Below are positions 28,146-51,745 of a stretch of 64,000 nucleotides of DNA, piece after piece. A program made the translations under genes and the position numbers. Below the pieces are notes generated by a model, which ran no database searches, was not told where the DNA came from, and was given only the letters and a program-made list of their open reading frames with translations. The DNA is from Pseudomonadota bacterium (GTDB lineage Bacteria > Desulfobacterota > Desulfobacteria > Desulfobacterales > RPRI01). Numbering within the stretch: the stretch's first letter is position 1; the number at the start of each line of letters is the position of its first letter. Location: NCBI GenBank assembly GCA_043825875.1, contig JBDRRF010000031.1, forward strand, positions 70,087 to 134,086. The letters run 5' to 3'.

Positions 28146-28147
28146 GG

Positions 28148-29317: not shown

Positions 29318-31632
29318 GTAATTTTATTCTTTTCTTCCAGTGCTTTTAATATTTTTTCAGCACTTATGGGCAAACTGTTGATATTTACTCCGACAGCATC
29401 AAAGATTGCATTGGCTATTGCGGGGCCGACAGGAGCTACGCTTCCTTCGCCGCAGGCCTTTGCACCGAAAGGTGCGTTCGGCTCATCCGTTTCAACTACA
29501 ATTATATCGGTTTGAGGCATTTCAAATGCCGTTGGCATATGGTAGCCCAAAAACGACGGGTTTAAAATGAGTCCATTTTCCATATTCAGATCTTCAAACA
29601 GACTGTACCCGATTCCCATATGAAGCCCGCCTTCAAGCTGGCCTTCCACCATAACAGGGTTAACCGGTTTGCCGACATCCATGGCAAAACAGAAGTTTTC
29701 CACATCAACCTGTCCGGTTTCCCGATCTACCTTAACTTCGGCTGTTCCTGCGCTGAAAATGTATGCCGGTGCGTAATTTCCCTTTCCTGTTTCAAATATG
29801 GCTTTTATTTCGGCAGCGTCGACTTCGTGACGCCATATTCCGTACCCTACGACTTCTTTACCTTTATTGTCTTCCTGAGAAGCCCAGATAGCTTCTCTAA
29901 AAGTCATGCCTTTATCAGGAGATCCCTTGATGTAAATTCTATTATCTCCTGCCTCAAGATCATCAATTCTTGCTTCAAGGCGTTTGGCAACAGCCTCAAA
30001 AAGCCTGTCTTTTGCATCGACAGCGGCTCGCTTTGTGGCCATGCCGGAGTGAAATGTTATCCTTTGACTGGCAGAACCTGCGCTGTAAGGGCAGATATCG
30101 GTATCACCGGATACAATCCTGATTTTATCCATATCGATTCCCAGTTCTTCGGCTGCCATCATGGCCATTACAGTGTCTGATCCCTGACCGATATCCTGAG
30201 CACCCGAATAAAGAGTGGCAAATCCCTCCGTATGAAGTTTGATCATTGCTGCGGCAGTATAATTGGCCGGAGTAATGTTGGCTGCGCGGCTGCCACCTGA
30301 GAGAGAGCCGCCGCTTCCCATACCGACACCTTTATCCAGTTTGTTCAATTTTCCACGTTTATCCTTCCATCCAATGCACATTGCAGCTTTTTCTATGGCT
30401 TCGGTGAATCCGCAGCTGGTTATATCCATTCCGGTTCCAGTCCTGTAACCGGTAGTAACGGCATTTTTGAGACGCAATTGTACAGGGTCCATTCCAAGCT
30501 CCCTTGCTATCAGGTCCATGTGCATATTCTCTGCAAAATGCGCCTGAGGAGCTGTATAGCCACGCCTTGCGCCTGCAACCGTTTTATTTGTATATACTCT
30601 TATAGAATTTAAACTTATGTTCGGGACCTTATAATCTATTCCCAGAAAAAGAGTTGAAAGAAATGGCCCAGGTAACCCCGAACCGCTATATGCGCCTCCA
30701 TCCATTATACATTTTACCTGCTTGGCGACAAGAGTTCCATCGCGCATAACACCTGTTTTCATATCAAAAATAATGGGATGACTGACTCTGGTGGTTCCAA
30801 ACTCTTCCTCACGGGAAAGTACAATCTTAACCGGCCGGCCGGTTTTTCTTGAAAGAGCGACACAACAGACATCCAAAGGAAAAAGTTCCGCCTTGCCTCC
30901 GAATCCCCCTCCCACTTTGGGTATAATCAGCCTTACCTTTTCTTCAGCAAGACCCAGAACATACGCAAGAATACTTCTGACATTATAAGGATTCTGAGTC
31001 GAGGTATATAAAGTAACCCGGCCGTCAAGTCCCCAAACACCGATTGAAGAATGAGGCTCCATTGCACAATGCGCCTGATACCTGGTTTCATAACGATGCT
31101 CGAATACTCTGTATGATTCCCTGAATCCTTGTTCCACATCTCCTGATTCTGTGAGAACCTGGTTTGATATATTCCTTTCAAACTCGTCATGAATAAGCGG
31201 AGCGCCGGGCTCCAATGATTCGAACGGATCAAATACTGGCGGCAGTTCTTTATAGTCCACACGGATAAGTTCTAAGGCCTCCATTGCCGTATCTTCATTA
31301 ACAGCTGCTACAGCCGCTACTTCATCTCCTATATAGCGCACCTTATCCAGACAAAGGGCAGGTTGGTCCCATATGGGCCGGTTTGAGGCAGCAACACCCA
31401 TTTTCCTGTCTCCGATATCTTTACTTGTTATAACCGCTTTCACTCCGGAAAGCTTTTGCGCCCTGCTTATGTCTATGTTTAGAACGCGTGCATGAGGGTA
31501 GGGGCTTCTTAATATCTTGCCGGTTAACATACCGGAAAATTTCAGGTCATCGGTGTAAATGGCCTTTCCCGTGACCTTTTCCAGAGAATCAACTTTATGT
31601 AAAGGCTTGCCCACTACACAATATTCTTTCAT
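29314..31632 (-). CDS. Xanthine dehydrogenase-family molybdopterin-binding subunit (paralog 2)
   Basis: KVTGKAIYTDD, RSPYPHA, MEPH, GGGFGGK, GQG, GQLEGG, GAKACGE. Confidence 0.93.
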   Translation of the reverse strand: MKEYCVVGKPLHKVDSLEKVTGKAIYTDDLKFSGMLTGKILRSPYPHARVLNIDISRAQKLSGVKAVITSKDIGDRKMGVAASNRPIWDQPALCLDKVRYIGDEVAAVAAVNEDTAMEALELIRVDYKELPPVFDPFESLEPGAPLIHDEFERNISNQVLTESGDVEQGFRESYRVFEHRYETRYQAHCAMEPHSSIGVWGLDGRVTLYTSTQNPYNVRSILAYVLGLAEEKVRLIIPKVGGGFGGKAELFPLDVCCVALSRKTGRPVKIVLSREEEFGTTRVSHPIIFDMKTGVMRDGTLVAKQVKCIMDGGAYSGSGLPGPFLSTLFLGIDYKVPNISLNSIRVYTNKTVAGARRGYTAPQAHFAENMHMDLIARELGMDPVQLRLKNAVTTGYRTGTGMDITSCGFTEAIEKAAMCIGWKDKRGKLNKLDKGVGMGSGGSLSGGSRAANITPANYTAAAMIKLHTEGFATLYSGAQDIGQGSDTVMAMMAAEELGIDMDKIRIVSGDTDICPYSAGSASQRITFHSGMATKRAAVDAKDRLFEAVAKRLEARIDDLEAGDNRIYIKGSPDKGMTFREAIWASQEDNKGKEVVGYGIWRHEVDAAEIKAIFETGKGNYAPAYIFSAGTAEVKVDRETGQVDVENFCFAMDVGKPVNPVMVEGQLEGGLHMGIGYSLFEDLNMENGLILNPSFLGYHMPTAFEMPQTDIIVVETDEPNAPFGAKACGEGSVAPVGPAIANAIFDAVGVNINSLPISAEKILKALEEKNKIT

Positions 31633-31650
31633 TGATTTCTCCTTCAGCTA

Positions 31651-34014
31651 TTATTTATTAATGTCTTTGCAATCCAGCATCTGTTTATTGGCGCTTTTCT
31701 CTTGTTCTTCCAGCGCCTTTAATATTTTTTCAGGGGTTAACGGCAGGTTTTTAATTCTTACACCAATGGCATCATAAATGGCGTTTGCAATAGCAGGAGC
31801 AACCGGTGCAAGACTTCCTTCACCACATGCTTTAGCGCCGAAAGGGCCCAGCTTTTCATCGGGTTCAATCAAAATAATATCCATTTCAGGCATTTCATAA
31901 ACAGTAGGAAATTTATAATCAATATACGATGCGTTCATAATTGATCCATTTTCGGTTTTTATATTTTCCATCAGGCTGTATCCAAGACCCATGTGAAGCC
32001 CTCCTTCCAGTTGGCCTTCTACACCGACCGGGTTAATTGCTGTGCCGCAGTCCTGGGCGAAACAGAATCTGCTTACGTCAATTTGGCCTGTTTCCTTATC
32101 TATCTTAACTTTGGCGGCACCGGCACAAAAAACATATGCCGCACAATAATTTCCGAATCCTGTTGCATAGATTTGTCCCAATACTTCCGGTTTCTCATCA
32201 TGCCGGAAATGCCCCCGGCCAATAATTTCCTGGCCATTATTATCTTCCTGACAAATCCAGATTGCTTGTCTGAAAGTCATTCCTTTTTCAGGTGTTCCCT
32301 TGACGTATATGCGATTGTCCTTTGCCTCAAGATCTTTGATGTTTGCTTCGAGTTTTTTTGCTACCACCTCAAAAAGTTGTTTTTTTGCATCTGCGGCCGC
32401 CAGCCTGGATGCATTGCCTGCATGGAATGTAACTCTTTGACCCCATGTTCCGGCATCATATGGACAAAGGTCGGTATCACTTACCATAAGCATTATCTTG
32501 TCCATGCTGATGCCCAGTTCCTCTGCTGCTATCATGGGAAGTACTGTGCCTGAACCCTGCCCGCAATCGGTAGCTCCGGTATAAAGGGTGGCAAAACCCT
32601 CTTTGTGCAGCTTTATCATTACAGATGTTGTATAATTCATCGGTGTTATATCAGGAGCATAACTGCTTCCCGAAACCGAACCGCCGCCACCCATTCCGAC
32701 TCCGACAGCCTTTTCTTTTTGTTTGCCGCGTATGTCTTTCCAGCCAATGCAGTTTGCTGTTTTTTCTATTGCCTCAGGAAATCCGCAGCTTGTTACTTTA
32801 ATACCGGTACTGCTGGTATAATTGGGGCCGATAGCATTTTTCAGACGAAATTCCACAGGATCCATTCCAAGATCTTCTGCGATTTCATCAAGATGGGAAC
32901 ATTCGGCAAAACGCACCTGGGGAGCTGTATAGCCGCGCCTTGCGCCCGCAATGGTTTTATTGGTATAGACCCTTAATGCATTCAAACTGAGATTGGGAAC
33001 CTTATAATCCAGACGCAAAAAAAGAGTTGAAAGAAAAGGGCCTGCTCCACCGGCACCACCGGCACCGTATGCGCCTCCATCCATTATATTTCTGATTTTC
33101 TTGGCAAGAATAATTCCGTCTTTTGTAACGGCGGTTTTTATTTCAACTGTTATTGGATGACTGACCCGGCTGGTGCCAAATTCCTCTTCTCTGGTTAATG
33201 TTATTTTTACCGGATACCCAGTTTTTTTTGAAAGCAGGGCACAGCATACATCCATCGGCATGAGCTCAACCTTTCCCCCGAAACCCCCTCCCAAAGCAGG
33301 CACTATTACTCTGACTCTGTCTTCGGGAAGGCCCAATACAAATGCCAGAACAGTTCTTATTTGATACGGGGCCTGCGTGGAAGTCCATAAGGTTATCCTG
33401 CCATTATTATCCCAACTGCCTAGCGATGTATGTGGTTCCATTGCACAATGGGCATGACAATGACTTTCATAGCGGCTCTCATACACCTTATAGGAATCCT
33501 TCAAAGCCTGCTCCACATCTCCTGCTTTAAGTAAAACCTGGTTTGAAATATTTTTTTCAAATCCTTCATGAATGATCGGGGCATCGGGTTCCATAGCTTC
33601 ATACATGTCAAATACCGCAGGCAGCTCCTTGTAATCCACTTTGATAAGTTCAAGAGCCTCCATAGCCGTATCTTCATCTGTGGCGGCAACAGCAGCGACT
33701 TCATCTCCTATGTATCTGACCTTGTCAATACAAAGAGAAGTCTGATCCCATAAAATATCACGTGTCGCAACAGATGTGCCCATCTTGAGGGAGCCGGTAT
33801 CCTTGCCGGTAATAACTGCTTTAACTCCGCGAAGCTTTGTTGCTTTGGATGTATCAATATTTAAAATTTTTGCATGAGGAAAAGGGCTTCTTAAAAGCTT
33901 GCCGGTAAGCATTCCGGCCATTTTTACATCATCCGTATAAATAGCCTTGCCGGTTACTTTGGAAACGGCATCAGTTCTTGGAGTGGATTTACCTACTATA
34001 GAGTAATCTTTCAT
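31651..34014 (-). CDS. Xanthine dehydrogenase-family molybdopterin-binding subunit (paralog 1)
   Basis: Same motif set, visibly collinear with paralog 2; start at MKDY after GGAG. Confidence 0.93.
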   Translation of the reverse strand: MKDYSIVGKSTPRTDAVSKVTGKAIYTDDVKMAGMLTGKLLRSPFPHAKILNIDTSKATKLRGVKAVITGKDTGSLKMGTSVATRDILWDQTSLCIDKVRYIGDEVAAVAATDEDTAMEALELIKVDYKELPAVFDMYEAMEPDAPIIHEGFEKNISNQVLLKAGDVEQALKDSYKVYESRYESHCHAHCAMEPHTSLGSWDNNGRITLWTSTQAPYQIRTVLAFVLGLPEDRVRVIVPALGGGFGGKVELMPMDVCCALLSKKTGYPVKITLTREEEFGTSRVSHPITVEIKTAVTKDGIILAKKIRNIMDGGAYGAGGAGGAGPFLSTLFLRLDYKVPNLSLNALRVYTNKTIAGARRGYTAPQVRFAECSHLDEIAEDLGMDPVEFRLKNAIGPNYTSSTGIKVTSCGFPEAIEKTANCIGWKDIRGKQKEKAVGVGMGGGGSVSGSSYAPDITPMNYTTSVMIKLHKEGFATLYTGATDCGQGSGTVLPMIAAEELGISMDKIMLMVSDTDLCPYDAGTWGQRVTFHAGNASRLAAADAKKQLFEVVAKKLEANIKDLEAKDNRIYVKGTPEKGMTFRQAIWICQEDNNGQEIIGRGHFRHDEKPEVLGQIYATGFGNYCAAYVFCAGAAKVKIDKETGQIDVSRFCFAQDCGTAINPVGVEGQLEGGLHMGLGYSLMENIKTENGSIMNASYIDYKFPTVYEMPEMDIILIEPDEKLGPFGAKACGEGSLAPVAPAIANAIYDAIGVRIKNLPLTPEKILKALEEQEKSANKQMLDCKDINK

Positions 34015-34082
34015 TTTATCCTCCATAAACAAATTTATTTATGTGGATCAGGATTTGTTTATATCAGTTATATTATCAATTG

Positions 34083-35534
34083 CTATAAACCCCATCCACC
34101 GCCCAAAGCCCGATGAAGGGTTACACGGTTTTGTAAAATGGTAAGGTCGGATGCAATGATTTCTTCCTCGGCCAAAAATCTGGCCTGTACAGCGTCTAAT
34201 ACCGTCAGATAGTCCACTATCCCCCGGTCATAGCGAAATTCGGCCATTTCCTGGGTTGCTTTTGCCTCATTCAAAAAATCGTTCAGCTGCTCTCTTCTCA
34301 GGATCTGCTGTTTTCTGATCAACAGGGCATTTTCAACTTCGGCAAAAGCCGAAAGTACTGTTTTGGCATAATCGGATACACCTTGCTGATAACGGGCCTG
34401 TGCAATATCGTATCCGGCTTTCCGGCTGCCTGCATCAAAAACAGGAGCGGTTATTCCGGAGGCAATATTCCATAATTCACTGGCCGGTGTAATCAGACTG
34501 CTCAGTTCATCGCTGGCATAACCAAAGCTTGCGGTTAAACTGATTGCAGGAAACCTGTTGGCTTTTGCTTGCCCCACTCTGGCATTTAAAGCCATAAGTT
34601 GTGCTTCAGCAGCCCGGATATCGGGCCTTTGCTTGAGAAGATCCGAAGGTAAACCGCCGGGAACAGGGGGTAGATGATCAATATAATTTTTTGGCTTAGT
34701 TTCCTGTGAAGTATTTTCCGGATATTTACCGCATAGTATGGCAAGATTGTTTTGGCTTACTTGCAATGCCTGGTGCAAAGACGGCTGAGCTGATTTAACC
34801 TGGGAAAGACTTCTTCTGGCCTGCCTGACCTCCAGAGCATCGGTAAGACCTGCTGTGTAGCGTTTATCAACTAAATTTAAACCGGTCTGATAATTTTGAA
34901 TGCGCTGTTCGTTTAGCTGTATTTGCCGGTTTAAAGATTCAATTTTAAGATAAAGACTAACCACTTCAGCAATAACGCTTTGGATAATCGTATCCCTGTT
35001 TTCTTCAGCCTGCAAAAGATCGGCTTTAGCCGCTTCATCCGCCCTTGCAAGACGACCCCAGAGATCCAGTTCAAAGGTGGCCGGAATTGATAATCCATAA
35101 CTGTTTGTGGTAATGCGTTTTTCACTTGTAATAAAACCGATGCCGCCTGCTGGCAAAACGGTTGGAGAAGTCATATCAACTGTAGACTGATTACGTTTTG
35201 CCTGCCCTGCGATATTCACACTTGGAAAACGGTTTGCTCCGGTTTGAATCATCCTGCCTTTTTGCTCAAGAATAACGGCAGCCGCTTTTCTTATATCAGG
35301 ATTGTATTTAAATGCTTCGTCAACAAGATCATTTAATTTCGGATCACCGAATTCGCGCCACCAGAAGTCTTTTGTGCCGGACAATGCAGACAGCTTTTCA
35401 TCTTCCTGAATATAGGCTTTGGGTATATTGATTCCAAGTTCCGGCCTTGAATAATTATCGCCCATTTTCATGCAGCCCGAAATAAACAGGGCAGATATTA
35501 TGAAAGTATAAAGTACCCAAAATAAAGGCTTCAT
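34083..35534 (-). CDS. Outer-membrane efflux lipoprotein (NodT/OprM family)
   Basis: Lipobox FISGC, WWREFGD, FELDLWG, RPDIRAAE, ALGGGW; TGATG overlap with tetR. Confidence 0.93.
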   Translation of the reverse strand: MKPLFWVLYTFIISALFISGCMKMGDNYSRPELGINIPKAYIQEDEKLSALSGTKDFWWREFGDPKLNDLVDEAFKYNPDIRKAAAVILEQKGRMIQTGANRFPSVNIAGQAKRNQSTVDMTSPTVLPAGGIGFITSEKRITTNSYGLSIPATFELDLWGRLARADEAAKADLLQAEENRDTIIQSVIAEVVSLYLKIESLNRQIQLNEQRIQNYQTGLNLVDKRYTAGLTDALEVRQARRSLSQVKSAQPSLHQALQVSQNNLAILCGKYPENTSQETKPKNYIDHLPPVPGGLPSDLLKQRPDIRAAEAQLMALNARVGQAKANRFPAISLTASFGYASDELSSLITPASELWNIASGITAPVFDAGSRKAGYDIAQARYQQGVSDYAKTVLSAFAEVENALLIRKQQILRREQLNDFLNEAKATQEMAEFRYDRGIVDYLTVLDAVQARFLAEEEIIASDLTILQNRVTLHRALGGGWGL

Positions 35535-36187
35535 CAACAAATCTCCCCGGATTTTCCATATAGACCATGCAAAGCAAAGGAAACAATATGTTCTGTCAGC
35601 TGATTAATAAAGGTTTCATTGTATTCTTTTCCGGTGATTGTAGTAACAGGAAGCTGCGCAAGGGAAAAATACAAAGACATTGCGATCATGCTGAAAATAT
35701 TTAACTTTATTTTAATTTCATCCATATTTTCAGGCAGGTATGGTTTTAATTGTTTTATCAATACCTCAAAAAAGGGTACCATTCCTTCCTTGATAACAAT
35801 TTCAACGGCTCCGGTAGGATTATTGATTTCTCTGTGCATCATACTATTTAAACTTTCATTGCCTAAATTATTAAGATGCTTTTCTATAAAAACAAGTGTT
35901 AAGGTTCTTACAATAGTTTCAAGATTGATTTCAGTCTGTTTTGCAAGGTTGTCTTCGAATCGGGTTTCGATTTCGGCCAAACGGGGAAGAAGTTGATACC
36001 GAAACACGTCGAAGTAAAGATTTTTTTTATTGCCGAAATGATAGTTTACAGCTGCAAGGTTGCATTTTGCAGATTGTGTGATTTCTCTGACTGATACACC
36101 GTTGTAACCTTTTTGGGCAAATAATTTTTCTGCGGTTGCAAGAATGCGTTTTCTTGTATTGTCTGTCACATCGTTAGGAGATTTCAT
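35534..36187 (-). CDS. TetR-family regulator
   Basis: LFAQKGY..VSVREI...NLAAVNYHFGNK HTH. Confidence 0.93.
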   Translation of the reverse strand: MKSPNDVTDNTRKRILATAEKLFAQKGYNGVSVREITQSAKCNLAAVNYHFGNKKNLYFDVFRYQLLPRLAEIETRFEDNLAKQTEINLETIVRTLTLVFIEKHLNNLGNESLNSMMHREINNPTGAVEIVIKEGMVPFFEVLIKQLKPYLPENMDEIKIKLNIFSMIAMSLYFSLAQLPVTTITGKEYNETFINQLTEHIVSFALHGLYGKSGEIC

Positions 36188-39258: not shown

Positions 39259-40095
39259 ATGTTTGCAGGTATAGATATAGGATCAATGACAGCAAAATGC
39301 GTCATTTTAAATGAATCGCAAATTACTTCCTGCGTTGTCATTCCTACTGATTCAAATCCAAAATTAGCCGGAATAACCGTATTTGAAAAGGCACTTGATG
39401 CGATTGAATGCACTATTAAAGAAATCAAGCGAATTGTGGGTACCGGATACGGTCGCGTATCCCTTGATTTTTTTGATCAAACAATAACGGAATTAAGCTG
39501 CCAGGCTAAAGGGGTTCGTTATTTGAATCCTGCCATCGAAGGTATTATTGATATAGGTGGCCAGGACAGTAAGGCTATTAAACTCAAACGTGATGGAACA
39601 ATTGATGACTTTAGCATGAATGACCGTTGTGCGGCCGGAACCGGGCGTTTTTTAGATGCTATGGCAAAAGCTCTTAAAACAGATACGGAATCTTTCAGCA
39701 ATTATTGTCAGGCCTCAAGGAAACCATGCTCAATTAACAGCACTTGTGTTGTATTTGCAGAATCGGAGGTGATTTCTCTTCTTGCTGCCGGAGAAACCAG
39801 AGAAGATATTGCGGCAGGACTTAATGAAAGCATAGCAAGACGTATTGGCACCCTGGTTAGACGTATAGGTCTTAACCGTAATGTCGCTTTTGTCGGTGGT
39901 GTTGCCAGAAATGACGGATTACGGTTGGCTTTGGAAAAGTATTTAAAAATTAAATTTACTGCAATTTCAGAAGATCCTCAGATTACGGGAGCTCTGGGCG
40001 CATCAATAATTGCAAAAGAAGGATATTTGGGCAGCAATAAAATAAATGATATGAATACAAAAAATATTTTGAGTGAAAGGAGAATATTTATTTAA
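39259..40095 (+). CDS. ATP-dependent [4Fe-4S] activase (HgdC/BcrAD/YjiL ASKHA family), probable reductase for the double-cubane protein
   Basis: GIDIGS, TGYGR, DIGGQDSK, MNDRCAAGTG, STCVVFAESEVIS. Confidence 0.92.
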   Translation: MFAGIDIGSMTAKCVILNESQITSCVVIPTDSNPKLAGITVFEKALDAIECTIKEIKRIVGTGYGRVSLDFFDQTITELSCQAKGVRYLNPAIEGIIDIGGQDSKAIKLKRDGTIDDFSMNDRCAAGTGRFLDAMAKALKTDTESFSNYCQASRKPCSINSTCVVFAESEVISLLAAGETREDIAAGLNESIARRIGTLVRRIGLNRNVAFVGGVARNDGLRLALEKYLKIKFTAISEDPQITGALGASIIAKEGYLGSNKINDMNTKNILSERRIFI

Positions 40096-42171
40096 ATGAA
40101 ATTTAAATTATTAAAACTTTTAGGACTGGGCTTTCTGGCTTTATGCCTGTTTATGCCTCAGAGTGTATGGGCACAAGAGGATGAAGATTGCCCGGACTGT
40201 CCTAAAAAAGAAGATTCTATAGATGATGAACGTGTTAAGCTGGGAGATGTTTTTGTCCACGCTTTTGGCGGGGGTGCAGTAACATATACTCCTACCAGTA
40301 CTTTAGTGGATGTGGATAAATATGTCAAAGCAGGAAAAGTAGAAAAAGTAGAAGATATACTTATGAACATTGCCGGAATTGATGTGTTGAAAAGTTCCGG
40401 AGCTCCTGATGCACAGGCTGTTGTTATGATGAGAGGGTTTGATGACAGCCGTTTTATTGTGGCAATGGACGGAAGACCACTAACAGGTTCAACCGGAAAG
40501 CAAAATACAACAATAGATTGGTCTGCTTTACCTTTGAGTGATATCGAAAAGATAGAGATTATCAGAGGTGGTGCATCAGCCGCTTATGAAAGTGCAGAAG
40601 GCGGTGTTATAAATATCATTACAAAAAAAGGAAGAAAAAGAGACTCTCCGGTTCCAAGACTGATTTATACGCAGGATTATTCGGCAAATCTTGATTACAC
40701 CAATGCAATTTCACATAGCGAAAGAGTCAACGTGGATGGAGGTGTGGGGGGTCTTACCTATTATTTAAATTACGGACACCGCGACGATGAAGCGTATTTG
40801 AATAATAATTATTTCTCTGGTGAAGACTATTCGGCCAGGTTTAATTATCTCTTCCCCTTTCAAGGAATTTTGTTCTTTAGTTATAAAGGCTCATCCACGG
40901 AAACGGGGAATAATGTAGTAAACTGGCCCGGTGTTGCAGGATATGATCCGGATTATCCTAAAGTTCCCGAAGATGCGGATACGATAAGATATAGGGCGAT
41001 ATCCTACGATTATCCTGGTAGAAATTACAAGGAAAGATCCGTAAAGCATATGGATGTGGCTTTTGAGCAGCCGATAAAGGATACAAAGTTAAAAATATAC
41101 TACTACAATACTCAAAATTATGAAAAACTTTACTATTTTACATCTACGGGTGTTCCCATGACATATGGCGGTGATGAGATAACCGAAAGGCATGTCGGAG
41201 GGGGTATCAAATGGTCTTTGTATCCTTTTAAAAATAATTCACTCACACTCGGGTATAATTTTAAAAGAACGGAAGCCAAGGAATTACATGATATTTTTAG
41301 AATCCATGCGGGATATTTTGAAGACTTGTGGAATATTTCCGATAAATGGATGATGAAAACCGGCCTGCGTGTTTCAAAGGCAAGACAGCAAACTTATCCT
41401 TTTAAGCTTTCCGATGAAGCGGCTTCTTCAAGGCATTTATACAATGACTGGTTCATCTTACCAAAATTTGCCTTAACATATAATTTCAATCCGGAAACCA
41501 ATGTATATGTATCCGTTGCCAAGGACTATGACACTCCAGGGTGCTGAGATGGCTCTGCTATGTCTGCCGGCGGCAAACAAAAAAAACTTGAATATGAAAC
41601 AACGTGGCAATATGAAACCGGAATTTATCATCGTTTTACAGAAAATATCGATAACAGATTTGTAGTTTATTATACTGATATCACAGATTACGTTACAATA
41701 AACAGAGCTGATGTAATTCATAACAGCACATGGAGTGGATGGAATATCGATACCGTAAGGTTCTGGGGAATTGAATATGAATTTAACATAAATTGTAAGA
41801 AAATGACTGCTTTTGGAAACTATACATATGTTGATAACGAAGTAAAAGAAGATGATCCCACAAAATTAGTAGACTTTTTAGTGGAATTACCACCTAAGCA
41901 TAAGATTAATCTTAGTTTAAGATATCATCTTAGCGATTCTGTACAATTTTCCTGGGATCAGCGTTACGTTGGCAAGAGATACAGTGAAGCAGGATATACT
42001 CTTAGCGAATATACAACATCGGATATCGGTGTGCAGTATTCATTTTATAAGAACAAAGCAAAGCTAAACGCTTATATCAATAATTTGTTCGGGGAAAATT
42101 ACGAGCAAACATACGGTTATCAGATGAAACGCCAAATTTATGGTTTAACATTTAAATATACATTCTTTTAA
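40096..42171 (+). CDS. TonB-dependent receptor with in-frame TGA at 41545-41547, putative selenoprotein (Cys-Sec), 691 aa
   Basis: Signal peptide, plug motifs MRGFD...DGRP, IEKIEIIRG...GGVINIITKK; ORFs 40096-41547 and 41560-42171 share one frame with one TGA between; ends ...FKYTFF. Confidence 0.8.
41561..41579 (+). other. Putative bacterial SECIS hairpin for TGA 41545
   Basis: TGTCTGCC-GGC-GGCAAACA (7 of 8 pairs), G-led apical loop about 21 nt after the TGA. Confidence 0.55.
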
Positions 42172-42177
42172 TTATTT

Positions 42178-44007
42178 ATGAAAAAACGAACCGTTAGTAT
42201 TTTGAAATTAAAATTTATCTATATTGTAAACATCAGTTGTGTATTGATTCTGCTGCCTTTTTTTAATGGTATCCTTAATGCAAAAGAAAAAATAATCAAA
42301 GAAGAAACCATTAAAATTGATACAAACAAGGATGGGAAGATTGATCAGTTAGTCTATCTGGATGCAGGTGGAAAAGTATTTAAGGTAGAAAATGACGGCA
42401 ATGCCGATGGAATAATGGACAGGTTCCAGTATTATGAAAATGGCAAACCAGTGCGTGTTGAAAGAGATCTTGATTTTAATCAAAAGATCGACTGCCGGGA
42501 TTTTATCAAAGATGGCAAAAGAGTCAGGCAGGAAAAGGACAGCACAGGCAATGGCAAAATCGATCAGATTATATACTTTGACAAGAAAGAAAATCCTTTA
42601 AAGATTGAAAAGGATTCTACAGGCGACGCTTATTTCGATACTATTATCTATTTTGATAAGGGAGTAATTGCAAGTTCAACAAAAGATACAAAAGCAGACG
42701 GAAAAATAAATGTATGGGAAACATATCAAAACGGAAAGCGTTTTGAAAGAAAAGAAGATATGGACGGTGATGGGCTGGTTGAAAAATTCATATTGTTTGA
42801 TGGCGAAGGTCTTGTAAAAGAAATCAGGATGGATTCGGACAAAAGCGGTAATATGGATACTTTCCGGTTTTTTGAAAAAGGAGATATCGTTTTACAGAAA
42901 AAGGATATGGATTATGACGGCTGGTTTGAAACCGTAATTATATTTAAAAACGGAAAAATATATGAAGAACAAAAAGATTCAAACAATGACAGGGTATTTG
43001 ATATAACACTCAAGTTTAAAAACGAAAAGCCTTTTTACCAGGAAAAAGACACTGATTTTGATAAAACAGCGGACTTCTTCTGTGATTTCGATTCAAAAGG
43101 ACTTCCGGCAGTAATCAGGGAAGACAGCAGGTATACAGGAAAAATAGATCGAACAAGATATTTTGAAAAGGGCGAGATAAGTAAAATGGAATATGATTCA
43201 CAAGGAGATGAATTCATAGATCAGGTAACCTTTTTTAAAAACAGTAAACCGAGTTTGCAGACACTTGATGAAAATAAAGACACAAAGCCTGATATAAAGA
43301 TTTTTTTCAACAAAAAGGGAGAAAAACAAAAGGTTGAAAGTGATACGAATTATAACGGCAAATCTGATACATGGCAGTACTACGAAAATGAAAAAATCGT
43401 AAGAGTGGAAAAAGATGAAAATGAAAACGGGGCAGTTGATCATAAACTGTATTTTGACAAAAACGAAAACAGAATAAAACTGCTTACGGATCAGGATCAC
43501 AATGGCAGATTTGAAACCACACAGTGGTTTAACCTTAAAGATTGGGATGTGGTTATAGAAACTGATATCGATGGAGATAAAAACACCGATACCCGTCATT
43601 TCTACAAGGATGGTATTTTAAGAGTAAAAGAAATTGATGAAAATGCCGACGGGAAACCGGATCTTGTTGAATATTACGACAAAGACAAAAAGCTTGTAAA
43701 GAGTAAGGAAGATGTCGGGTACACCGGTATTTTAAATACTGTCTGGCATTATGACGGAAAGCAGCAGGCAGTTCTCGCCGAAAAGGATGTTGACGGAGAC
43801 GGCAGGATTGATACCTGGTTTTACTATGACAAGGATCGTGTAACAAGAGTTGAGGAAGATTCAAACCATGACGGCAAACCGGACATCTGGGAAGAATATG
43901 ATGAATCCGAAGCACTGGTAAAAAAATCAAAAGATCTGGATTATGACGGAATTGTCGATGTGATAGAAGACAAGACAAATAATGATAATTTAAACATTAA
44001 TAAATAA
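42178..44007 (+). CDS. Exported acidic tandem-repeat protein (about 24-aa repeats with DxxxDGxxD)
   Basis: Signal-like N-terminus, then roughly 20 or more repeats such as DTNKDGKID, DMDGDGLVE, DVDGDGRID, DSNHDGKPD. Confidence 0.8.
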   Translation: MKKRTVSILKLKFIYIVNISCVLILLPFFNGILNAKEKIIKEETIKIDTNKDGKIDQLVYLDAGGKVFKVENDGNADGIMDRFQYYENGKPVRVERDLDFNQKIDCRDFIKDGKRVRQEKDSTGNGKIDQIIYFDKKENPLKIEKDSTGDAYFDTIIYFDKGVIASSTKDTKADGKINVWETYQNGKRFERKEDMDGDGLVEKFILFDGEGLVKEIRMDSDKSGNMDTFRFFEKGDIVLQKKDMDYDGWFETVIIFKNGKIYEEQKDSNNDRVFDITLKFKNEKPFYQEKDTDFDKTADFFCDFDSKGLPAVIREDSRYTGKIDRTRYFEKGEISKMEYDSQGDEFIDQVTFFKNSKPSLQTLDENKDTKPDIKIFFNKKGEKQKVESDTNYNGKSDTWQYYENEKIVRVEKDENENGAVDHKLYFDKNENRIKLLTDQDHNGRFETTQWFNLKDWDVVIETDIDGDKNTDTRHFYKDGILRVKEIDENADGKPDLVEYYDKDKKLVKSKEDVGYTGILNTVWHYDGKQQAVLAEKDVDGDGRIDTWFYYDKDRVTRVEEDSNHDGKPDIWEEYDESEALVKKSKDLDYDGIVDVIEDKTNNDNLNINK

Positions 44008-44023: not shown

Positions 44024-44641
44024 ATGCTCGAATTCTTTTCGAAGGGCGGTATCTGCATGTGGCCGATTCTTCTGTGTTCGGTTATATCATTGGCTATTTT
44101 TATAGAGCGTCTTATACGGATCGGCAAGATGCGTAAGCGCGGACAGGGGCTTGAGTATAAGGTGGCTGAGAAACTGAAAAACAGGGATGATCAAAATGCT
44201 TTTGCGATTGCAGGTCAGAGCAATTCACCTATTGGACGGGTGTTGGTAAAAGCACTGGAAGTAAAAGACCAGGACAGGGAAACCATTGAGACCGTTATTG
44301 TCCATGCGACCGATGAAGAGGTTCAGGGCCTTTCACGATATCTTCAGGCTCTTGCAACAATGGGAAATATAGTACCTATGATGGGACTTTTAGGTACGGT
44401 TATGGGTATGATTAAAGCATTTATGGTTATCCAGGAAATGGGAGGCAAGGTCAACTCTTCAGTTCTTGCCGGAGGTATCTGGGAGGCTATGCTGACAACA
44501 GCATTCGGCCTTGCTGTAGCTCTTCCTATTGTTGTTGCTCACAGCTATCTTCTTTCAATGGTAAATGGCTATGAGTCCAGAATTCAGCAGGGAAGTGTTT
44601 TGTTTTTGAAAACCATATCATCTCTTAGAAACAAATCTTAA
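44024..44641 (+). CDS. exbB: ExbB/TolQ proton-channel protein
   Basis: GG..MWPI, PMMGLLGTV.GMI, GGIWEAMLTTAFGL. Confidence 0.92.
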   Translation: MLEFFSKGGICMWPILLCSVISLAIFIERLIRIGKMRKRGQGLEYKVAEKLKNRDDQNAFAIAGQSNSPIGRVLVKALEVKDQDRETIETVIVHATDEEVQGLSRYLQALATMGNIVPMMGLLGTVMGMIKAFMVIQEMGGKVNSSVLAGGIWEAMLTTAFGLAVALPIVVAHSYLLSMVNGYESRIQQGSVLFLKTISSLRNKS

Positions 44642-44653
44642 AAGGATTGCTTT

Positions 44654-45061
44654 ATGATTAAAAGCCGTAAAAAGAGGGCAATTTATGAGGTGCAGATGCC
44701 GCTTACCTCGCTTATTGATATTATTTTCATGCTGCTTATATATTTTCTTTTGACCACAAATTTCATGGTGGATGAAGGAATAAAGATCAAGCTTCCCCAG
44801 GCAAAAGCATCAAAGCCCCAGGTGGAGGAATCCATCACTATTTTTGTTGATAAAGATGGCAGAACATATCTGAACGAACAGGAAGTCGAGATAGGCGAAC
44901 TTTTCAAGAAGGTTAAGGAAATGGTTGGAAACGATAAGGATAAACTGGTAGTAGTCAGATCCGACAGGGGAGTAATACTTAACAAGGTGGTCAAGGTCAT
45001 GGATGTTGCCAAGGCTGCCGGAGCCGGCAGGCTTTGCCTTGCTACGGAAAAGGATTTGTAA
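44654..45061 (+). CDS. exbD: ExbD/TolR protein
   Basis: LTSLIDIIFMLLIYF, LP.A, RSD...VVKVMD. Confidence 0.92.
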   Translation: MIKSRKKRAIYEVQMPLTSLIDIIFMLLIYFLLTTNFMVDEGIKIKLPQAKASKPQVEESITIFVDKDGRTYLNEQEVEIGELFKKVKEMVGNDKDKLVVVRSDRGVILNKVVKVMDVAKAAGAGRLCLATEKDL

Positions 45062-45066
45062 TTGTC

Positions 45067-45792
45067 ATGGAAACTACATGGGGAACAAATATTATTGGTG
45101 ACCGTTACGATAGAAAAAAAAATGCAAACTGGCTTCTAAGAGGACTGATCGGAATTTCTTTGGGGGTCCATTTGATAGCGGTTTTGCATGTTTCAGGGCT
45201 ATATAAGTCAAGCATGATATCATTTATAGAGTTAAGTATGGAAGATATTTCAAAGTCTGTTTCAAGAGATATTCCAAGACCCCGTCACAAACCGAAACCT
45301 GTTTCCGTCCCGAAAGAGATTCAAAAGCTCAAAATACAAACAAGGGTTATGCCAAGCTTCAAACCTATCAAAATAGACAACATAAATAATAACTATTCAA
45401 GCAAAATGACCGAACAGATAAGTGCTTCCGGGATTTTAAAAGGCTCTGCTTTGGATCTTGCCGCTCTTGATCCGGGAGTATCAGACGGATTAAAGGATGT
45501 AATAACGAAAAAAGATTATTTTGATCTTGTTCAGCTCAGGATAGAAAGCAAAAAAGAATATCCGAGAATAGCAAAGATGAATCGGATAGAGGGTCGGTCA
45601 ACCGTGGAATTTGTTGTCGGACTTGACGGTAGTATATCCGGACTATCGATTGTAGGAACATCAAGAGACAGAACTTTAGACAATGCCGTTATTGAAGCCG
45701 TAAAAAAAGCATCACCTTTTCCAAGGCCTCCTTTAAGACTTTTTAGCGGGCCTATTCCGATTGAAATTACTGTCGTTTTTGAAATAACATAA
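45067..45792 (+). CDS. tonB: TonB energy transducer
   Basis: TM with S...H (SLGVH), Pro-rich linker, YP..A....IEG...VEF and SPFP.PP C-domain. Confidence 0.88.
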   Translation: METTWGTNIIGDRYDRKKNANWLLRGLIGISLGVHLIAVLHVSGLYKSSMISFIELSMEDISKSVSRDIPRPRHKPKPVSVPKEIQKLKIQTRVMPSFKPIKIDNINNNYSSKMTEQISASGILKGSALDLAALDPGVSDGLKDVITKKDYFDLVQLRIESKKEYPRIAKMNRIEGRSTVEFVVGLDGSISGLSIVGTSRDRTLDNAVIEAVKKASPFPRPPLRLFSGPIPIEITVVFEIT

Positions 45793-45803: not shown

Positions 45804-46961
45804 ATGAAAGAATTCAAGGTTAATGATACTATTCAGGAAGTAAGAACAAATCTGGCTTTAGAACTTGAAATGGCGAAAGATGAGGGAAGAAAAGTTGTAG
45901 GTTCAATGTGTTCTTATTTTCCAAAGGAACTTGTATGGGCAGCCGATGCGATTTCAGTCGGTCTTTGCGGAACTACTGAAGAGCCGATTGCAGCAGCAGA
46001 AGAAGTGCTGCCTGCTGACTTATGCCCCATGGTTAAAGCAACTTACGGCCGTGCTGTTTCAAACACCTGCCCAATATTTCCGCTTACCGATTGTATTGTG
46101 GGTGAAACAACATGCGATGGCAGAAAAAAAATGTATGAACTACTTGCATGGGAAAAGCCTATGCACATTATGGAACTCCCGCAGATGTCTGAAGAAAAGG
46201 AAGCTCTTGTCCACTGGATAGCGGAGGTTAAAAAGCTTAAAGTATTTATTGAAAAACAACTTGGGGTAAAAATAACAGACGAAAAATTAAAACAGGCCAT
46301 CAAAGATGTAAATGAAGAACGCAGGCTTTTAGTTGAAATTCATAAATGCCGTAAGTCACATCCAGTGCCGGTTATGGGTGTTGACCTTGTTGGATTAACC
46401 ACCAAATTCGCCTATACGGTTGATCGCAAACCTTATAGAGAAAAACTTGGCAATCTTCTCGAAGGGCTAAAAACAAAAATACAAAATAATGAATATGCCT
46501 GTTCTTCTGACAGACCAAGAATCCTCTGGACGGGTTTGGGAAACAGCCTGGGATGTGACAAGGTTTTAAAACTGGTGGAGGAATGCGGAGGGGTTGTCGT
46601 CTGTCAGGAAGGTTGTGGCGGTATTACGCGCATGGAAGATATGGTGGATGAAAACAAAGATCCTATTGAAGCGATTGCCCAAAGATATCTAAGAGTAACT
46701 TGTTCCTGTATGACGCCGAATAATACAAGGTTTAAAGATATCGACAGGCTTATAACGGAATATAATATACAGGGTGTTATAGATCTTACATGGCAGTTTT
46801 GCCATACTTTTAATATCGAATCTTACAGGGTAAAAGAAGTTGTTAAAGGAAAGCATGACCTTCCTTTTCTCCATATCGTAACGGATTTTTCGCAGTCCGA
46901 TATCGGACAGCTCAGAGTACGCATTGAAGGTTTTCTGGAGCAGATTTCAATGGGAAATTAG
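45804..46961 (+). CDS. Double-cubane-cluster-type anaerobic reductase (YjiM / 2-hydroxyacyl-CoA dehydratase superfamily)
   Basis: [58 protein letters not shown]; no second dehydratase subunit in the operon. Confidence 0.8.
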
Positions 46962-46962
46962 C

Positions 46963-47745
46963 ATGTGTCTCATTGAGGCGGAAAAACTTACAAAAGTATA
47001 TGCGGATGGAAAAAGCAAAAATGTAATTGCAATCGAAGACTTTAATCTCAAAGTTGAGGAACGTGAATTTACCAGCATAGTCGGTCCTAGCGGATGCGGA
47101 AAATCAACTTTTCTATTATTGGTTTCGGGCTTAGAAAAAGCAACGGCAGGCAAGCTATATATTAAAGGCCAACCGGTAAACGGTCCCGATCCTTTAAGGT
47201 CTATAGTATTTCAGGAATATCTTCTTTTCCCATGGAAAACTGTCAGAGGTAATGTTGAGTTCGGTCTGGAACTTAAAAGAATACCGAAAAACAAACGCCG
47301 GGAAATTGCTTCCGTCTATATTGAACTCGTAGGTCTGGAGGGTTTTGAAGACCGCTATCCTCACGAGTTGAGCGGAGGCATGAAACAGCGGGTAGCAATT
47401 GCAAGGGCGCTTGTAAATAAGCCCAAGGTAATTTTGCTTGACGAACCATTCGGATCATTGGATGCACTCACCCGTGAAGGCCTTCAGACAGAGCTTTTGC
47501 GAATATGGCATGAGGCAAAATGCACAGTACTTTTTGTAACCCATAGCATAAGCGAGGCGGTTTATTTGTCTGACAAAGTTGCAATTATGACCAAGCGGCC
47601 AGGAAAGATTAAAGAATTGATTAAAATTGATCTTCCCCGGCCACGCACCAGGGATATGTTTGTTTCGCCTGAGTTTAGAGAATATGAAAGATATCTTAAA
47701 GAACTTGTATGGGAAGAATTTCAAGAAGGCAACAATGAGGTTTAA
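46963..47745 (+). CDS. ABC ATPase, TauB/SsuB type
   Basis: [32 protein letters not shown]. Confidence 0.93.
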
Positions 47746-48505
47746 ATACAGAAAAATTATCTCTCCCATATGTGTTCTTGCATTATGGGAAATCATCGGC
47801 CGTTTTATCTGGGTGGATCCTTTCTTTTTTCCGCCTCCGTCCGAAATGCTTAAGGAATTGTATGCAATGATAATTACCGGTGAGGTATTTCCGCACATTG
47901 CTATTAGTATTGCCCGTGCATTTAGCGGATATATTCTCGCAGCAATTGCAGGTCTGACTATAGGACTTCTTGTAGCATGGTCAACGGTTGTCGAAGATAT
48001 CATCGATCCGCTTATCGAACTGATCAGGCCTATTTCCACATTTGCGTTGGTACCTGTTATGTTTATCTGGTTCGGTATAGGAAACGGCTCTAAAGTGGCG
48101 ATTATTTTTAAAGCATGTTTTTTCCCTATAGTCTTAAATACAATTGCAGGAATCAAAGGTGTAGATAAAAAACTCATTCAGGCTGCGCGTTCACTTGGCG
48201 CAAATGGTTTTCAGCTATGGGTTAAAGTACTTATACCGGCAGCCCTCCCCATGATTGTCACCGGTATGAGAATTTCAACCGCCATGTCAATGCTTGCAAT
48301 TGTGGGAGTTGAAATGCTTGCTGCCGATTCCGGAATAGGCTTTCTAGTTATAGATGCACAACGAACATTTGCCACAGCGAGAATGTTTGCAGGAATTATC
48401 GTAATTTCATCTCTAGGATTTAGTATGGATCGTATTGCCCGGATTATTCAAAGCAGAGTACTGGCTTGGCATACCGAAACCTCTTTATCCGGGGGAATGG
48501 CGTAA
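47735..48505 (+). CDS. ABC permease, TauC/SsuC type
   Basis: PPPS, WFGIG, AARSLGA, PAALP, GIGF. Confidence 0.92.
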
Positions 48506-48531: not shown

Positions 48532-49512
48532 ATGTATTTTAAAAAAATTACAATTATGATCATATCCGTTACGGTAATTGTATTACTAAATTTATATCCC
48601 TGCACAGCCAAAGACTTTCCTCTGGGCAGCATGAAGGTAACATACGGCAGAAGTATAGACGATCTTCCTCTCTATGTAGGGCTTGAAGAAGGCTTTTGGG
48701 AAAAAGAAGGACTCAAAGTCGAGCTTGTAAGACTTGTAGGTGAACAAAACATTATCGCTTCAGCGCTTCATGGCGACATAAATGCAGGTCATATTGCACC
48801 TGCATCATTTTTTCATGCTGCAAACAGAAAAATTCCCATAAAGATCGTTGCATGGCTCGGCAGGGCGCATAATGGAACAAGATGCGGTCTTCATTCGGAT
48901 GCAACAAATAAGGAAATAAAAGACATTACGGATTTAAAAGGCAAGAGAGTTGCAACCAGTGGGGATATAAGTGCCAAGATGATTCTTCGCGAAACTTTGA
49001 TAAAGGCCGGCTTAAGCTTTGATGATATTCATGAAATAAAGGGGATCAAGCTTGATGATGCCATGAAGCATGAAGCTGCCTTAAGATCAAAAGGCGTTGA
49101 TGTAATAGTTGCCTGAGATCCCACTGCGACCATGCTGGAGATGCATGGTGCGAGTCGGCTGCTTTTTTCATTTAATGACGCAATCCCGGGATATGTATTT
49201 TCAGGATTGTTTTTTACGGATAAGTATCTTCGTGAAAACCCGGAAAAAGCAAAAGCCTTTTTACGGGGCCTTGTCAGGTCATTTGATTATATAAAAAACA
49301 ATGAAAAAGAAGCAAGACGCTGGATACCGAAATATTGCGGAGTCGAAATGGAAGTGGCTATGCGCTCTGCCCTGAGGCATTTTGAAGACGGAAGGGAACC
49401 TATTAAACAGTTATATAAACAGCAGGATATTATGATAGAAAACGGCCATCTTCCGGGAAGAATTCCCATAGAAGATTTTATCGATTACAGTTATCTGCCA
49501 GATAATAATTGA
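48532..49512 (+). CDS. ABC substrate-binding protein (SsuA/NMT1 type) with in-frame TGA at 49114-49116, putative selenoprotein, 326 aa
   Basis: ORFs 48532-49116 and 49132-49512 share one frame; read-through gives VDVIVA-U-DPTAT; PLYVGLEEG, DLKGKRVA, ENPE..KAFLRGL motifs span both halves. Confidence 0.8.
49120..49158 (+). other. Putative bacterial SECIS hairpin for TGA 49114
   Basis: Perfect stem ACCATGC (49129-49135) / GCATGGT (49143-49149), loop TGGAGAT, extendable lower stem; loop about 19 nt after the TGA. Confidence 0.7.
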
Positions 49513-49558: not shown

Positions 49559-51745
49559 ATGAAAAAAAGAATCTTCATCAATGAAGAATCAGCTAAGGGA
49601 TATACAAGGCGACAATTTCTTAAATACCTTGAGCTTGCAGGAATCGGTGTAACAATAGGCGGTGCAGGCTTTCTTGCAGGATGCAGTGATAAAGTTGATT
49701 CTCTTGCCGGGACAAAGGAAGTCATCACAAGATGCGGTCTTTGCGGATCGGATTGCGGCATGAAGGCATATATCAAAAATGATCGTGTGATTGCAGTTTC
49801 TCCTAACAAGGATGACCCTCATAGCAAAGGATTTATGTGCGATATGGGGCTTGCAAATGTTGAACAAACATATTCTCCGGATAGAATTCTTAATCCAGGA
49901 AAGCGGGTCGGTGATAAATGGGTGGATATTTCGTGGGATGAAGCATTAAATATTATTTCGGAAAAACTTTCAAAACTTAAAAATGATTATGGCCCTCAAT
50001 CAACAGTCTGCCACTATGGAGTTACCGAGGTTAGAGCACCTTTTTACAGGCAGTTATTCAGGCGGTTTTCAAATGTTTACGGAACTCCAAATTTTACCGG
50101 CTGCGGCAGCCAGTGCGCTGTTTCAACAATGATGGCAAAAAAATACAGCATAGGTTCTGTTCACCCTGATTATGAAAATACTAAATGCATGGTTCAATGG
50201 GGAAGCAATCCGTCATCTTCAAGCCTTCTTGAATGGTTTAGTGAAGTACTGCCTGCCAGGGAAAGAGGTGCAAAACTTATCTGCATTGATCCAAGAGCAA
50301 ATCCCATGACTCAAATGGCAGATATTCATCTTAAGCCGCGTCCCGGAACAGACGGGGTGCTTGCACTGGCAATGACAAATATAATTTTAGAAAATAATCT
50401 TTATAACAGGGATACTGTAGAAAAATATGGCACAGGTTTTTTCGAATATGAAGAACTTGTAAAACAATACAAGCCTAAGCGAGCGGAAGCCATAACCGGA
50501 ATTTTGGCAAAAGATATTATAAATGCAACAATGATGTATGCCGAAAATTCACCTGCTTGTATTGAAACAGGCAATGCATTGGAACTCCATATAAACGGAG
50601 TGCAGACAATCAGGTCTGTTATGTTGATACAAGCCTTATGTGGAAATGTGAATGTAAAGGGAGGTATGATTTCTTCGGGAGAAAAAGTCGGGCTTGCGGA
50701 TTTGGAATTAGATAATTATAAGCCATTTACATCCCAAGGATATTCTGCCGACAGCTATCCTGTTTTATGGCAGTCAAGAAAAATGGTAACGGCAAATCTT
50801 TTGCCGGATACCGTGTTAACAAAAAAGCCATATCCGATTAAAGCGCTTATGGTTATAGGTGGCAATCCGATTATTACGGGTCCTAATTCTTCACACCAGA
50901 GAAAAGCATATAAAGAAATGGATATGGTGGTTGTCTATGATCTTTTTATGACAGAAACTGCCAAAATGGCAGATATATTCTTACCTGCTACATCATGTCT
51001 TGAAAGAGATAATTTCAAGGCAAGGGACAGGATATATCTGACACCAAAGGTTATAGCCGAACAGGGAAATGCTTGGCCGGAATGGAAGCTATGGTTTGGG
51101 CTGGCAAATAAGATGGGTTATGAAAATGAATTTCCATGGGCGACCCTGGATGAAGCTATAGACGAACACCTCTCTCCCATCAATGTTACCGCTTCGGATC
51201 TTAGGATGAATTTTAATGGTATTGATCATCCTTTAAAGTCGGGAAGCATGAAAAAGCTGGAGAATAAAATAAAGACTCCTTCCGGAAAAATTGAATTCCA
51301 TTCACAAACACTGGCAGACGCAGGATACAATCCTCTGCCTGACTATGTTGAGCCATACGAAGGACCTGCTGACAAAAAACTTCTTGCAAAATATCCGCTT
51401 CTTATGACCTCCGGCATACGGATACCATACTATATTCATTCCCAGTTTAGAAATCTTGCTTCGCTTAAAGCAAAATCACCAGGTCCTGTGATTGAGATGA
51501 ATCCGGCCGATGCTTCATCTCTTGGAATATCCGAAGGAAATAATGTATCAATAAGCTCTCTTAGAGGCAGCATCCAGGCAAAGGCACAACTTAATAAAAG
51601 CCTGAAATCCGGAATAGTAGCCATGTCTCATGGATGGTCAAAAAGTAATGTAAACGAATTGACAGACGATTCGGCTCAATCTCTGGACCCGATAAGCTCT
51701 TTTCCGGGGTATAGAGGATTTTTGTGTAAAGTTGAAAAAGTATAG
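49559..51745 (+). CDS. Tat-exported Mo/W-bisPGD oxidoreductase catalytic subunit
   Basis: TRRQFLK Tat motif plus LAGC lipobox, CGLCGSDC..C FS0 cluster, GTPN...SQC likely metal-ligand Cys, TPSGKIEF, HSQFRN. Confidence 0.9.
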   Translation: MKKRIFINEESAKGYTRRQFLKYLELAGIGVTIGGAGFLAGCSDKVDSLAGTKEVITRCGLCGSDCGMKAYIKNDRVIAVSPNKDDPHSKGFMCDMGLANVEQTYSPDRILNPGKRVGDKWVDISWDEALNIISEKLSKLKNDYGPQSTVCHYGVTEVRAPFYRQLFRRFSNVYGTPNFTGCGSQCAVSTMMAKKYSIGSVHPDYENTKCMVQWGSNPSSSSLLEWFSEVLPARERGAKLICIDPRANPMTQMADIHLKPRPGTDGVLALAMTNIILENNLYNRDTVEKYGTGFFEYEELVKQYKPKRAEAITGILAKDIINATMMYAENSPACIETGNALELHINGVQTIRSVMLIQALCGNVNVKGGMISSGEKVGLADLELDNYKPFTSQGYSADSYPVLWQSRKMVTANLLPDTVLTKKPYPIKALMVIGGNPIITGPNSSHQRKAYKEMDMVVVYDLFMTETAKMADIFLPATSCLERDNFKARDRIYLTPKVIAEQGNAWPEWKLWFGLANKMGYENEFPWATLDEAIDEHLSPINVTASDLRMNFNGIDHPLKSGSMKKLENKIKTPSGKIEFHSQTLADAGYNPLPDYVEPYEGPADKKLLAKYPLLMTSGIRIPYYIHSQFRNLASLKAKSPGPVIEMNPADASSLGISEGNNVSISSLRGSIQAKAQLNKSLKSGIVAMSHGWSKSNVNELTDDSAQSLDPISSFPGYRGFLCKVEKV

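Follow-up and report, generated by a model that had tools for sequence, protein, structure and literature searches.

What does a TGA codon in the middle of an otherwise continuous TonB-dependent receptor frame stand for, a premature stop or a selenocysteine (Sec), and in which system would such a receptor serve? This question is raised by a 64,000-nucleotide stretch of a Desulfobacterales genome (Pseudomonadota bacterium, NCBI GenBank assembly GCA_043825875.1, contig JBDRRF010000031.1, positions 70,087 to 134,086 of the forward strand), which we call the window over its full length and in which position 1 is the first letter. The gene concerned lies at 40096..42171 on the + strand and was recognized, as one frame with a single TGA and by its Pfam and NF049946 matches, as a TonB-dependent receptor selenoprotein of the CU motif-type with 691 amino acids (aa). 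Judged from its sequence, it is a predicted intact TonB-dependent outer-membrane transporter with codon 484, a UGA, decoded as selenocysteine, and we consider it very likely that Sec is truly inserted at this codon. The best explanation of the locus as a whole is that the Sec receptor forms the outer-membrane part of an uptake module for a thiophilic cargo, a reading to which we give a probability of about 0.75.

The codons from 41539 read GGG TGC TGA GAT GGC, with the TGA (41545-41547) directly 3' of a Cys codon (TGC, 41542-41544), and the two together (41542..41547, + strand) correspond to the pair Cys483-Sec484. Translation table 11 splits the receptor frame into an open reading frame (ORF) at 40096-41547 (483 aa) and a second ORF in the same frame at 41560-42171 (203 aa). 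Readthrough of 40096-42171 yields a product of 691 residues that contains a single TGA-encoded position (U484) and ends with ...KYTFF. These data confirm an earlier description of this DNA made from the letters alone (here the sequence-only reading), which had noticed a CU dipeptide in a 691-aa frame open to a C-terminal Phe. A single Pfam match to TonB_dep_Rec_b-barrel (PF00593, residues 228-664) spans the stop, and Plug (PF07715) covers residues 75-170; the receptor has what is expected of a transporter of this class, namely a plug, a 22-strand barrel and a C-terminal Phe (...TFF).

For family scoring we used NCBIfam release 20. Against NF049946, 'TonB-dependent receptor, CU motif-type', the receptor scores 1106.4 bits (cut-off 700), with residues 8-691 aligned to profile positions 2-683 of 683; its CU stands at the family's site and no difference was found. 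By this match the receptor is assigned to NF049946, a family already catalogued and experimentally untouched, and is therefore not new.

We next turn to relatives, for which an order-wide sample of 401 genomes of the same order was searched with the NF049946 model. The cut-off was passed in ten of the 401 genomes, of which nine have a single TGA in the receptor gene and one has no TGA there. The nine, including the window, read GCUD at the site, and the TGA-free tenth receptor (L040) reads TGC TGC (GCCD), so that homologues carry either CU or CC at the very position where the pair had been noticed. Over a 33-locus alignment, with L049 (wrong frame picked) not counted in the tally, the site motifs are GCUD in 9 loci, GCCD in 1, U[IV]UD in 8, CPUD in 5, CxxU in 5 and neither Sec nor Cys in 4: the CPUD, U[IV]UD and CxxU loci belong to sister subfamilies, and the four relatives that lack Sec at this place lack Cys there as well. 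Remoter Cys forms recovered by an exhaustive HMMER search are PGCCD, PNCCD, CPHC and CEVC (CC in P0009 and P0012). Many matches of that search cover just one side of the site, either the N-terminal part up to query residue 483 or the C-terminal part from residues 491-505 onward, as is typical when one gene has been called as two.

The same picture was obtained from the databases, where six of six homologues (399-493 aa; 62-100% identity over the shared part) terminate exactly at ...PGC. Standard pipelines do yield fragments, as had been foreseen: the public entries are 481-493 aa long and are named plainly TonB-dependent receptor. When 61 related genomes were searched in six frames, matches over the full length with a single in-frame TGA were found at 97, 82 and 44% identity, together with remoter matches (28-31%) that have one or two TGAs. 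As a separate observation, one locus (L043; G334 C18:18933-24101) holds, side by side in one genome, two receptors with Sec that differ in motif type, one with one TGA and the other with two.

In comparison with L036, the differences at the three codon positions number 29/20/72 downstream of the TGA and 60/31/179 upstream, mostly at third positions on both sides, and the amino-acid identity is similar upstream and downstream. The third-position bias past the TGA indicates purifying selection on this part of the frame. The gene is spanned, at 90-99% likeness and with no indels, by contigs that come from three other studies; their base differences are read only up to 41021, short of the TGA.

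A hairpin resembling a bacterial selenocysteine insertion sequence (bSECIS), UGUCUGCC-GGC-GGCAAACA with one C.A mismatch, was recognized at 41561..41579 (+ strand) by comparison of 22 loci. The hairpin that the sequence-only reading had claimed, TGTCTGCC-GGC-GGCAAACA, was located there and begins at 41561, 14 nt past the TGA; in all CU, UxU and CPU loci the hairpin begins at this same distance past the UGA. Of 27 stretches extracted from behind the UGA, 22 served to test the helix, and the five CxxU-type loci were left out for their different spacer. Over the 7-bp helix, 85% of the cells are paired versus 66.7% in shuffles, and 0 of 500 shuffles reach the observed value, while controls with the partner slid reach 60% paired or lower. 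Compensatory changes, on both sides of the helix, occur in five of the seven pairs, and the covariation score amounts to 0.45 versus 0.135 in shuffles and at most 0.163 with the partner slid. SelB probably recognizes this hairpin 14 nt downstream of the UGA.

The genome encodes tRNA-Sec (75.6 bits), SelB (378), SelA (603) and SelD (381), and SelD as well as two formate dehydrogenase alpha subunits (FdhA) each have one in-frame TGA (G000 C76:116389-117315; C112:20699-22705; C8:33515-35524). Of 57 long window ORFs, 18 have TGA as their stop codon, and there is thus no general reassignment of the codon. The proposal that the receptor is an outer-membrane selenoprotein in which Cys and Sec are vicinal is therefore upheld by the conservation of the TGA, the Cys-Cys orthologue, the conservation of the downstream frame, the hairpin covariation and the full Sec machinery. 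The further idea of the sequence-only reading, that such a pair may bind soft metals or form a selenenylsulfide, is plausible.

A second in-frame TGA was found in the same operon. The gene at 48532..49512 (+ strand) encodes an ATP-binding cassette (ABC) binding protein of the SsuA/NMT1 type, with the TGA at 49114-49116 (VIVA-U-DPTATMLE), and was recognized by the conservation of this codon: the TGA is present in 12 of 12 matches in the 401 genomes, and VAUDP or IAUDP occurs in eight of eight module loci. Full-length homologues (51-52% identity) carry Cys at the Sec position, Cys118 is invariant, and a hairpin lies downstream of this UGA as well. By these signs the binding protein is a second predicted selenoprotein. 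Its scores stay below the cut-offs of all NCBIfam models (SsuA_fam 112 of 163.5, SaoX 59.3 of 300), and most of the 120 database clusters listed for its family are fragments of 180-230 aa truncated at the TGA codon. The nearest solved structure is 4NMY, in which the aligned residue is Trp; a Trp-to-stop pseudogene, or a TGA read as Trp, was considered for this gene and set aside in view of the conservation of the TGA and the homologues with Cys. Among the literature matches listed, no relevant paper on a selenoprotein of the SsuA/NMT1/TauA kind was present. The uncatalogued Sec binding-protein family is an annotation gap of moderate interest.

With both codons in hand, two other explanations of the receptor TGA can be weighed. 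If it had arisen by nonsense mutation, or as a mistake of sequencing or assembly, the gene would be a pseudogene or two fragments; the split into 483 aa and 203 aa under table 11 agrees with this, and the second TGA of the operon could suggest decay. However, the receptor TGA is kept in nine species, down to 41-54% identity, and a sister species has Cys; purifying selection acts on the part of the frame after the codon; the independent contigs of the three other studies show no indels (their differences are read to 41021, and the codon itself is not shown); and the second TGA is conserved in all 12 matches. We find decay or error hardly credible on this evidence. Slightly less far-fetched, and still very improbable, is that the codon is read as Trp, Cys or Gly, by near-cognate readthrough or a changed code. 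4NMY does have a Trp at the position aligned with the binding-protein Sec, but the stop function of TGA in 18 of the 57 long window ORFs, the complete Sec machinery together with the classical TGA-bearing FdhA and SelD, the conserved hairpins at SECIS distance, and the presence of Cys, the usual partner of Sec, at both sites in close homologues all favor selenocysteine.

Where in the protein does the Cys-Sec pair lie? We built an AlphaFold2 model from a 34-row alignment (34 near-full-length rows among the 150 matches listed), which has a mean predicted local distance difference test (pLDDT) score of 80.5, a predicted TM-score (pTM) of 0.82 and 22 barrel strands. The even-to-odd strand connections are all short (2-6 residues) and the long loops are found among the odd-to-even connections; short periplasmic turns and long extracellular loops are the usual arrangement of such barrels. 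Residues CU483-484 lie between strand 13 (468-479) and strand 14 (501-513), with nine strands following, and this position indicates that CU opens extracellular loop 7. The placement of the pair at the start of this loop thus holds by the topology of the model, and the surface loop named by the sequence-only reading stands by strand counting. The peptide of the window's other receptor, with which that reading had aligned the site by eye, was located at residue 450 of 57436-59415.

Foldseek matched the model to solved transporters (PirA 5fr8, BtuB 1nqh, PfeA, Cir and OprC 6z8s) with E-values of 3e-33 to 1e-28 and TMq of 0.67-0.74, the top TM-scores being those of OprC, a copper-transporting receptor (0.73-0.74). 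OprC binds copper via Cys, Met and His. These transporters share the 22-strand barrel and the plug with our receptor; they differ in sequence (12-19% identity), and there is no selenoprotein among them. The receptor passes neither the siderophore model TIGR01783 (127.8 of 223.5) nor the BtuB model TIGR01779 (98.1 of 599.7).

A further cysteine motif, CPDCP (residues 32-36; 40189..40203, + strand), lies between the signal peptide and a TonB-box-like DVFVHAF at residue 51, and this position before the TonB box suggests that it is periplasmic. An N-terminal Cys motif is present in nine of nine Sec-type receptors, eight with both CPDCP Cys positions and one with CPEGKC; the sole receptor of the Cys-Cys type has no such motif.

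We then asked what the gene neighborhood tells about the role of the receptor. All genes of the operon lie on the + strand. Immediately upstream, at 39259..40095, is an ATPase of the BcrA/BadF/HgdC type, or activase (PF01869; TIGR00241, 257 bits), a close copy of which (at least 59% identity) lies beside the receptor in five of nine related loci, with only a distant or cut copy in two more. Downstream, at 42178..44007, a 609-aa Asp/Gly-rich repeat protein with only partial family matches contains about 20 repeats (DxDxDGK.D-like) and a hydrophobic N-terminal segment; it adjoins the receptor or the TonB genes in five of the nine loci. By their Pfam matches, the following genes encode ExbB (MotA_ExbB, 44024-44641), ExbD (ExbD, 44654-45061) and TonB (TonB_C, 45034-45792). 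A double-cubane-cluster anaerobic reductase (DCCP) is encoded at 45804..46961 (NF040772, 484.3 bits, cut-off 350), and its gene is found in seven of the nine loci. The ABC ATPase (46924-47745) has SaoA as its second-best NCBIfam match (248.6, cut-off 360), and the ABC permease (47627-48505, likely start 47735) has SaoP as its second-best (176.8, cut-off 295). The permease has one conserved Cys, at codon 48116-48118 (KACFFP), present in seven of seven orthologues.

Past the binding protein, the row of genes continues with a molybdenum/tungsten (Mo/W) bis-PGD oxidoreductase with a Tat signal (49559-51745; TRRQFLK motif), which stays below every named NCBIfam cut-off, and with two ferredoxins found in the Pfam/NCBIfam scan, one NapG-like (51732-52517) and one NapH-like (52514-53383). 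Linkage of the oxidoreductase and NapGH-like genes with the receptor was seen in the window and in G008, G011 and G090, and in G090 the receptor lies between the two; the oxidoreductase set is also seen at L067 6742-12677.

Eight of the nine related loci, two of these eight being cut by contig ends, have part or the whole of the set of activase, DCCP, ABC ATPase, permease and binding-protein genes beside the receptor. The Sec binding protein occurs in nine of ten receptor genomes, and the receptor in nine of twelve binding-protein genomes, three having none. Synteny thus shows the receptor to be the putative outer-membrane part of a conserved module composed of activase, DCCP, ABC ATPase, permease and Sec binding protein, which is often accompanied by TonB/ExbBD and the repeat protein.

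The sister families NF049944 (PUIUD), NF049947 (PCPU) and NF049945 (FCYXU) have the fold, the Sec loop position and the hairpin distance in common with our receptor, whereas their motif spacing differs, and against their models it scores 245-355 bits, far under the cut-offs of 800-850. No ABC or DCCP genes were found within about 1.5 kb of 18 sister-type receptor loci. A literature search found no paper on the function or context of the NF049946 subfamily and none joining double-cubane, TonB and selenocysteine; for the motif names FCYXU, PUIUD, PCPU and NF049946, only unrelated papers were among the matches listed. As far as the available part of the 2025 deep-Sep article goes, a TonB-dependent receptor selenoprotein was predicted in Desulfosarcina sp. 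BuS5, with TGA-bearing as well as Cys-bearing homologues reported (PMC12013277). A 2026 review, in the sections accessible to us, lists only the FCYXU type, including the BuS5 receptor (PMC13188914).

The closest described system to the window module is the selenocysteine-assisted organometallic (SAO) system (10.1101/2022.07.06.499078). The accessible portion of that preprint connects ABC importers that carry Sec with double-cubane enzymes, places 955 of 970 double-cubane proteins in SelD-containing assemblies, proposes the CU/CC motifs of SaoB, SaoC and SaoX as metal ligands, and describes the physiological substrates of double-cubane reductases as unknown. Compared with what is given there, the likeness is fourfold: both systems have a Sec-bearing ABC importer; 4NMY is a fold neighbor of the window binding protein and of SaoX; the binding protein has a U-x-P motif resembling that of SaoX, as a likeness of motif only; and DCCP (NF040772) and activase (TIGR00241) genes adjoin the ABC genes here. 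On the other hand, SAO has no outer-membrane part, 'TonB' occurring 0 times in the preprint text (10.1101/2022.07.06.499078). None of SaoL (MerB-like), SaoE, SaoT, SaoC and SaoB was found among the 13 operon genes scanned, a search to which the rest of the genome did not belong.

Which cargo would such a module carry? In two of six flank-scanned loci, genes for a YeeE/YedE-type Sulf_transp protein, a Se_S_carrier (PF11823) and a Carb_kinase-like protein adjoin the module, and in one of the six a TusA-DsrE fusion does so; these neighbors with a role in selenium or sulfur handling were found by the flank scan at L061 646-3568, L066 7134-9937 and, for TusA-DsrE, L068 8843-9436. Flank genes related to molybdenum in other loci encode TOBE, Oxidored_molyb and FmdE proteins. 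The neighbors suggest a thiophilic species as cargo. Our first choice, made tentatively, is a reducible selenium (or sulfur/selenium) species; the second, a possible cargo by analogy with what was proposed for SAO, is a soft metal, metalloid or organometal; what remains of the likelihood goes to something else.

On this basis a path for the cargo can be sketched. The thiolate/selenolate pair of loop 7 would contact the thiophilic cargo at the barrel mouth, and the cargo would then cross the outer membrane by TonB-driven passage, possibly via the periplasmic CPDCP motif. It might next be held at the Cys118/Sec195 site of the binding protein, from which the permease would deliver it to the ATP-driven double-cubane reductase, with reduction taking place in the cytoplasm. 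Such a selenol relay across the envelope, from the CU of loop 7 through CPDCP, Cys118/Sec195 and the conserved-Cys permease to the double-cubane reductase, could scavenge reducible selenium, or another thiophilic element, from sulfidic water. In this complete form we regard the relay as speculative and rather unlikely.

Two further explanations accept Sec as real and differ in what the pair does. The cargo could be a soft metal, a metalloid or an organometallic compound (Hg, As, Cu, thio-Mo/W), with CU chelating it rather than exchanging chalcogen. The metal-ligand role proposed for the CU/CC motifs of SaoB, SaoC and SaoX in the accessible text of the preprint (10.1101/2022.07.06.499078), together with the double-cubane association, speaks for this, as do the Mo/W enzymes, TOBE protein and FmdE among the neighbors, the leading place of OprC in the fold search (TM 0.73-0.74) and the Sao models, which are in the top three NCBIfam matches of the ATPase, the permease and the binding protein, and never the best. 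Yet every Sao score is under its cut-off, neither a MerB-like SaoL nor an efflux pump is seen in the operon, and selenium- or sulfur-handling neighbors are present in three of the six flank-scanned loci. We regard chelation of a metal as a serious possibility, though less likely than not. Alternatively, CU could act as a redox switch or lock: rather than contacting a ligand, the pair would form a selenenylsulfide by which loop 7 is gated or the redox state is sensed. A strained selenenylsulfide is possible for a vicinal Cys-Sec pair, the CxxU and UxU of the sister subfamilies are classical redox spacings, and CPDCP, presumably periplasmic, is similar to redox motifs of the CxxC kind. No reductant is known outside the outer membrane, however, the lone Sec of the binding protein with its distant Cys looks more like a binding site, and the linkage to an importer and a cytoplasmic reductase suits a cargo better; a switch is, in our judgment, improbable.

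Several results weigh against a Sec receptor working in an uptake module for a thiophilic cargo. The hairpin check came out divided, with covariation across the 22 loci in its favor and the window's own fold against it: the 72 nt of 41539-41610 fold with z = +0.33, 123 of 200 shuffles being at least as stable, and the window hairpin carries the C.A mismatch and is absent from the minimum-free-energy structure. The case for the hairpin is thus due to the 22-locus comparison and not to single-sequence folding, in a setting where the helix tested was derived from the same sequences as were scored and lies within coding sequence. Loop 7 has a pLDDT of only 56-61, below 50 at residues 488-494. The receptor of G090 has no ABC or DCCP genes nearby. 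With respect to SAO, the window proteins remain under the cut-offs for SaoA (248.6 of 360), SaoP (176.8 of 295) and SaoX (59.3 of 300). The thiophilic nature of the cargo is derived from neighbors only, the window operon itself has no adjoining YedE or Se-carrier gene, and it would be awkward for a system that scavenges selenium to depend on selenium.

To our knowledge, no Sec-bearing outer-membrane transporter has been characterized. The bare finding of the receptor adds little, and its novelty is low; the value lies in the handle it offers, an operon that aligns receptor, binding protein and reductase for one cargo, and this operon-level reading is of moderate interest. If true, the relay would give double-cubane enzymes a first physiological substrate, and it would constitute a dedicated high-affinity selenium uptake route for bacteria.

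Elsewhere in the window, on the - strand at 29314-34032, two large subunits of the xanthine-dehydrogenase family of molybdenum hydroxylases are encoded in tandem. This pair adjoins a resistance-nodulation-division (RND) efflux set (25005-29314 and 34083-35540) together with a TetR regulator.

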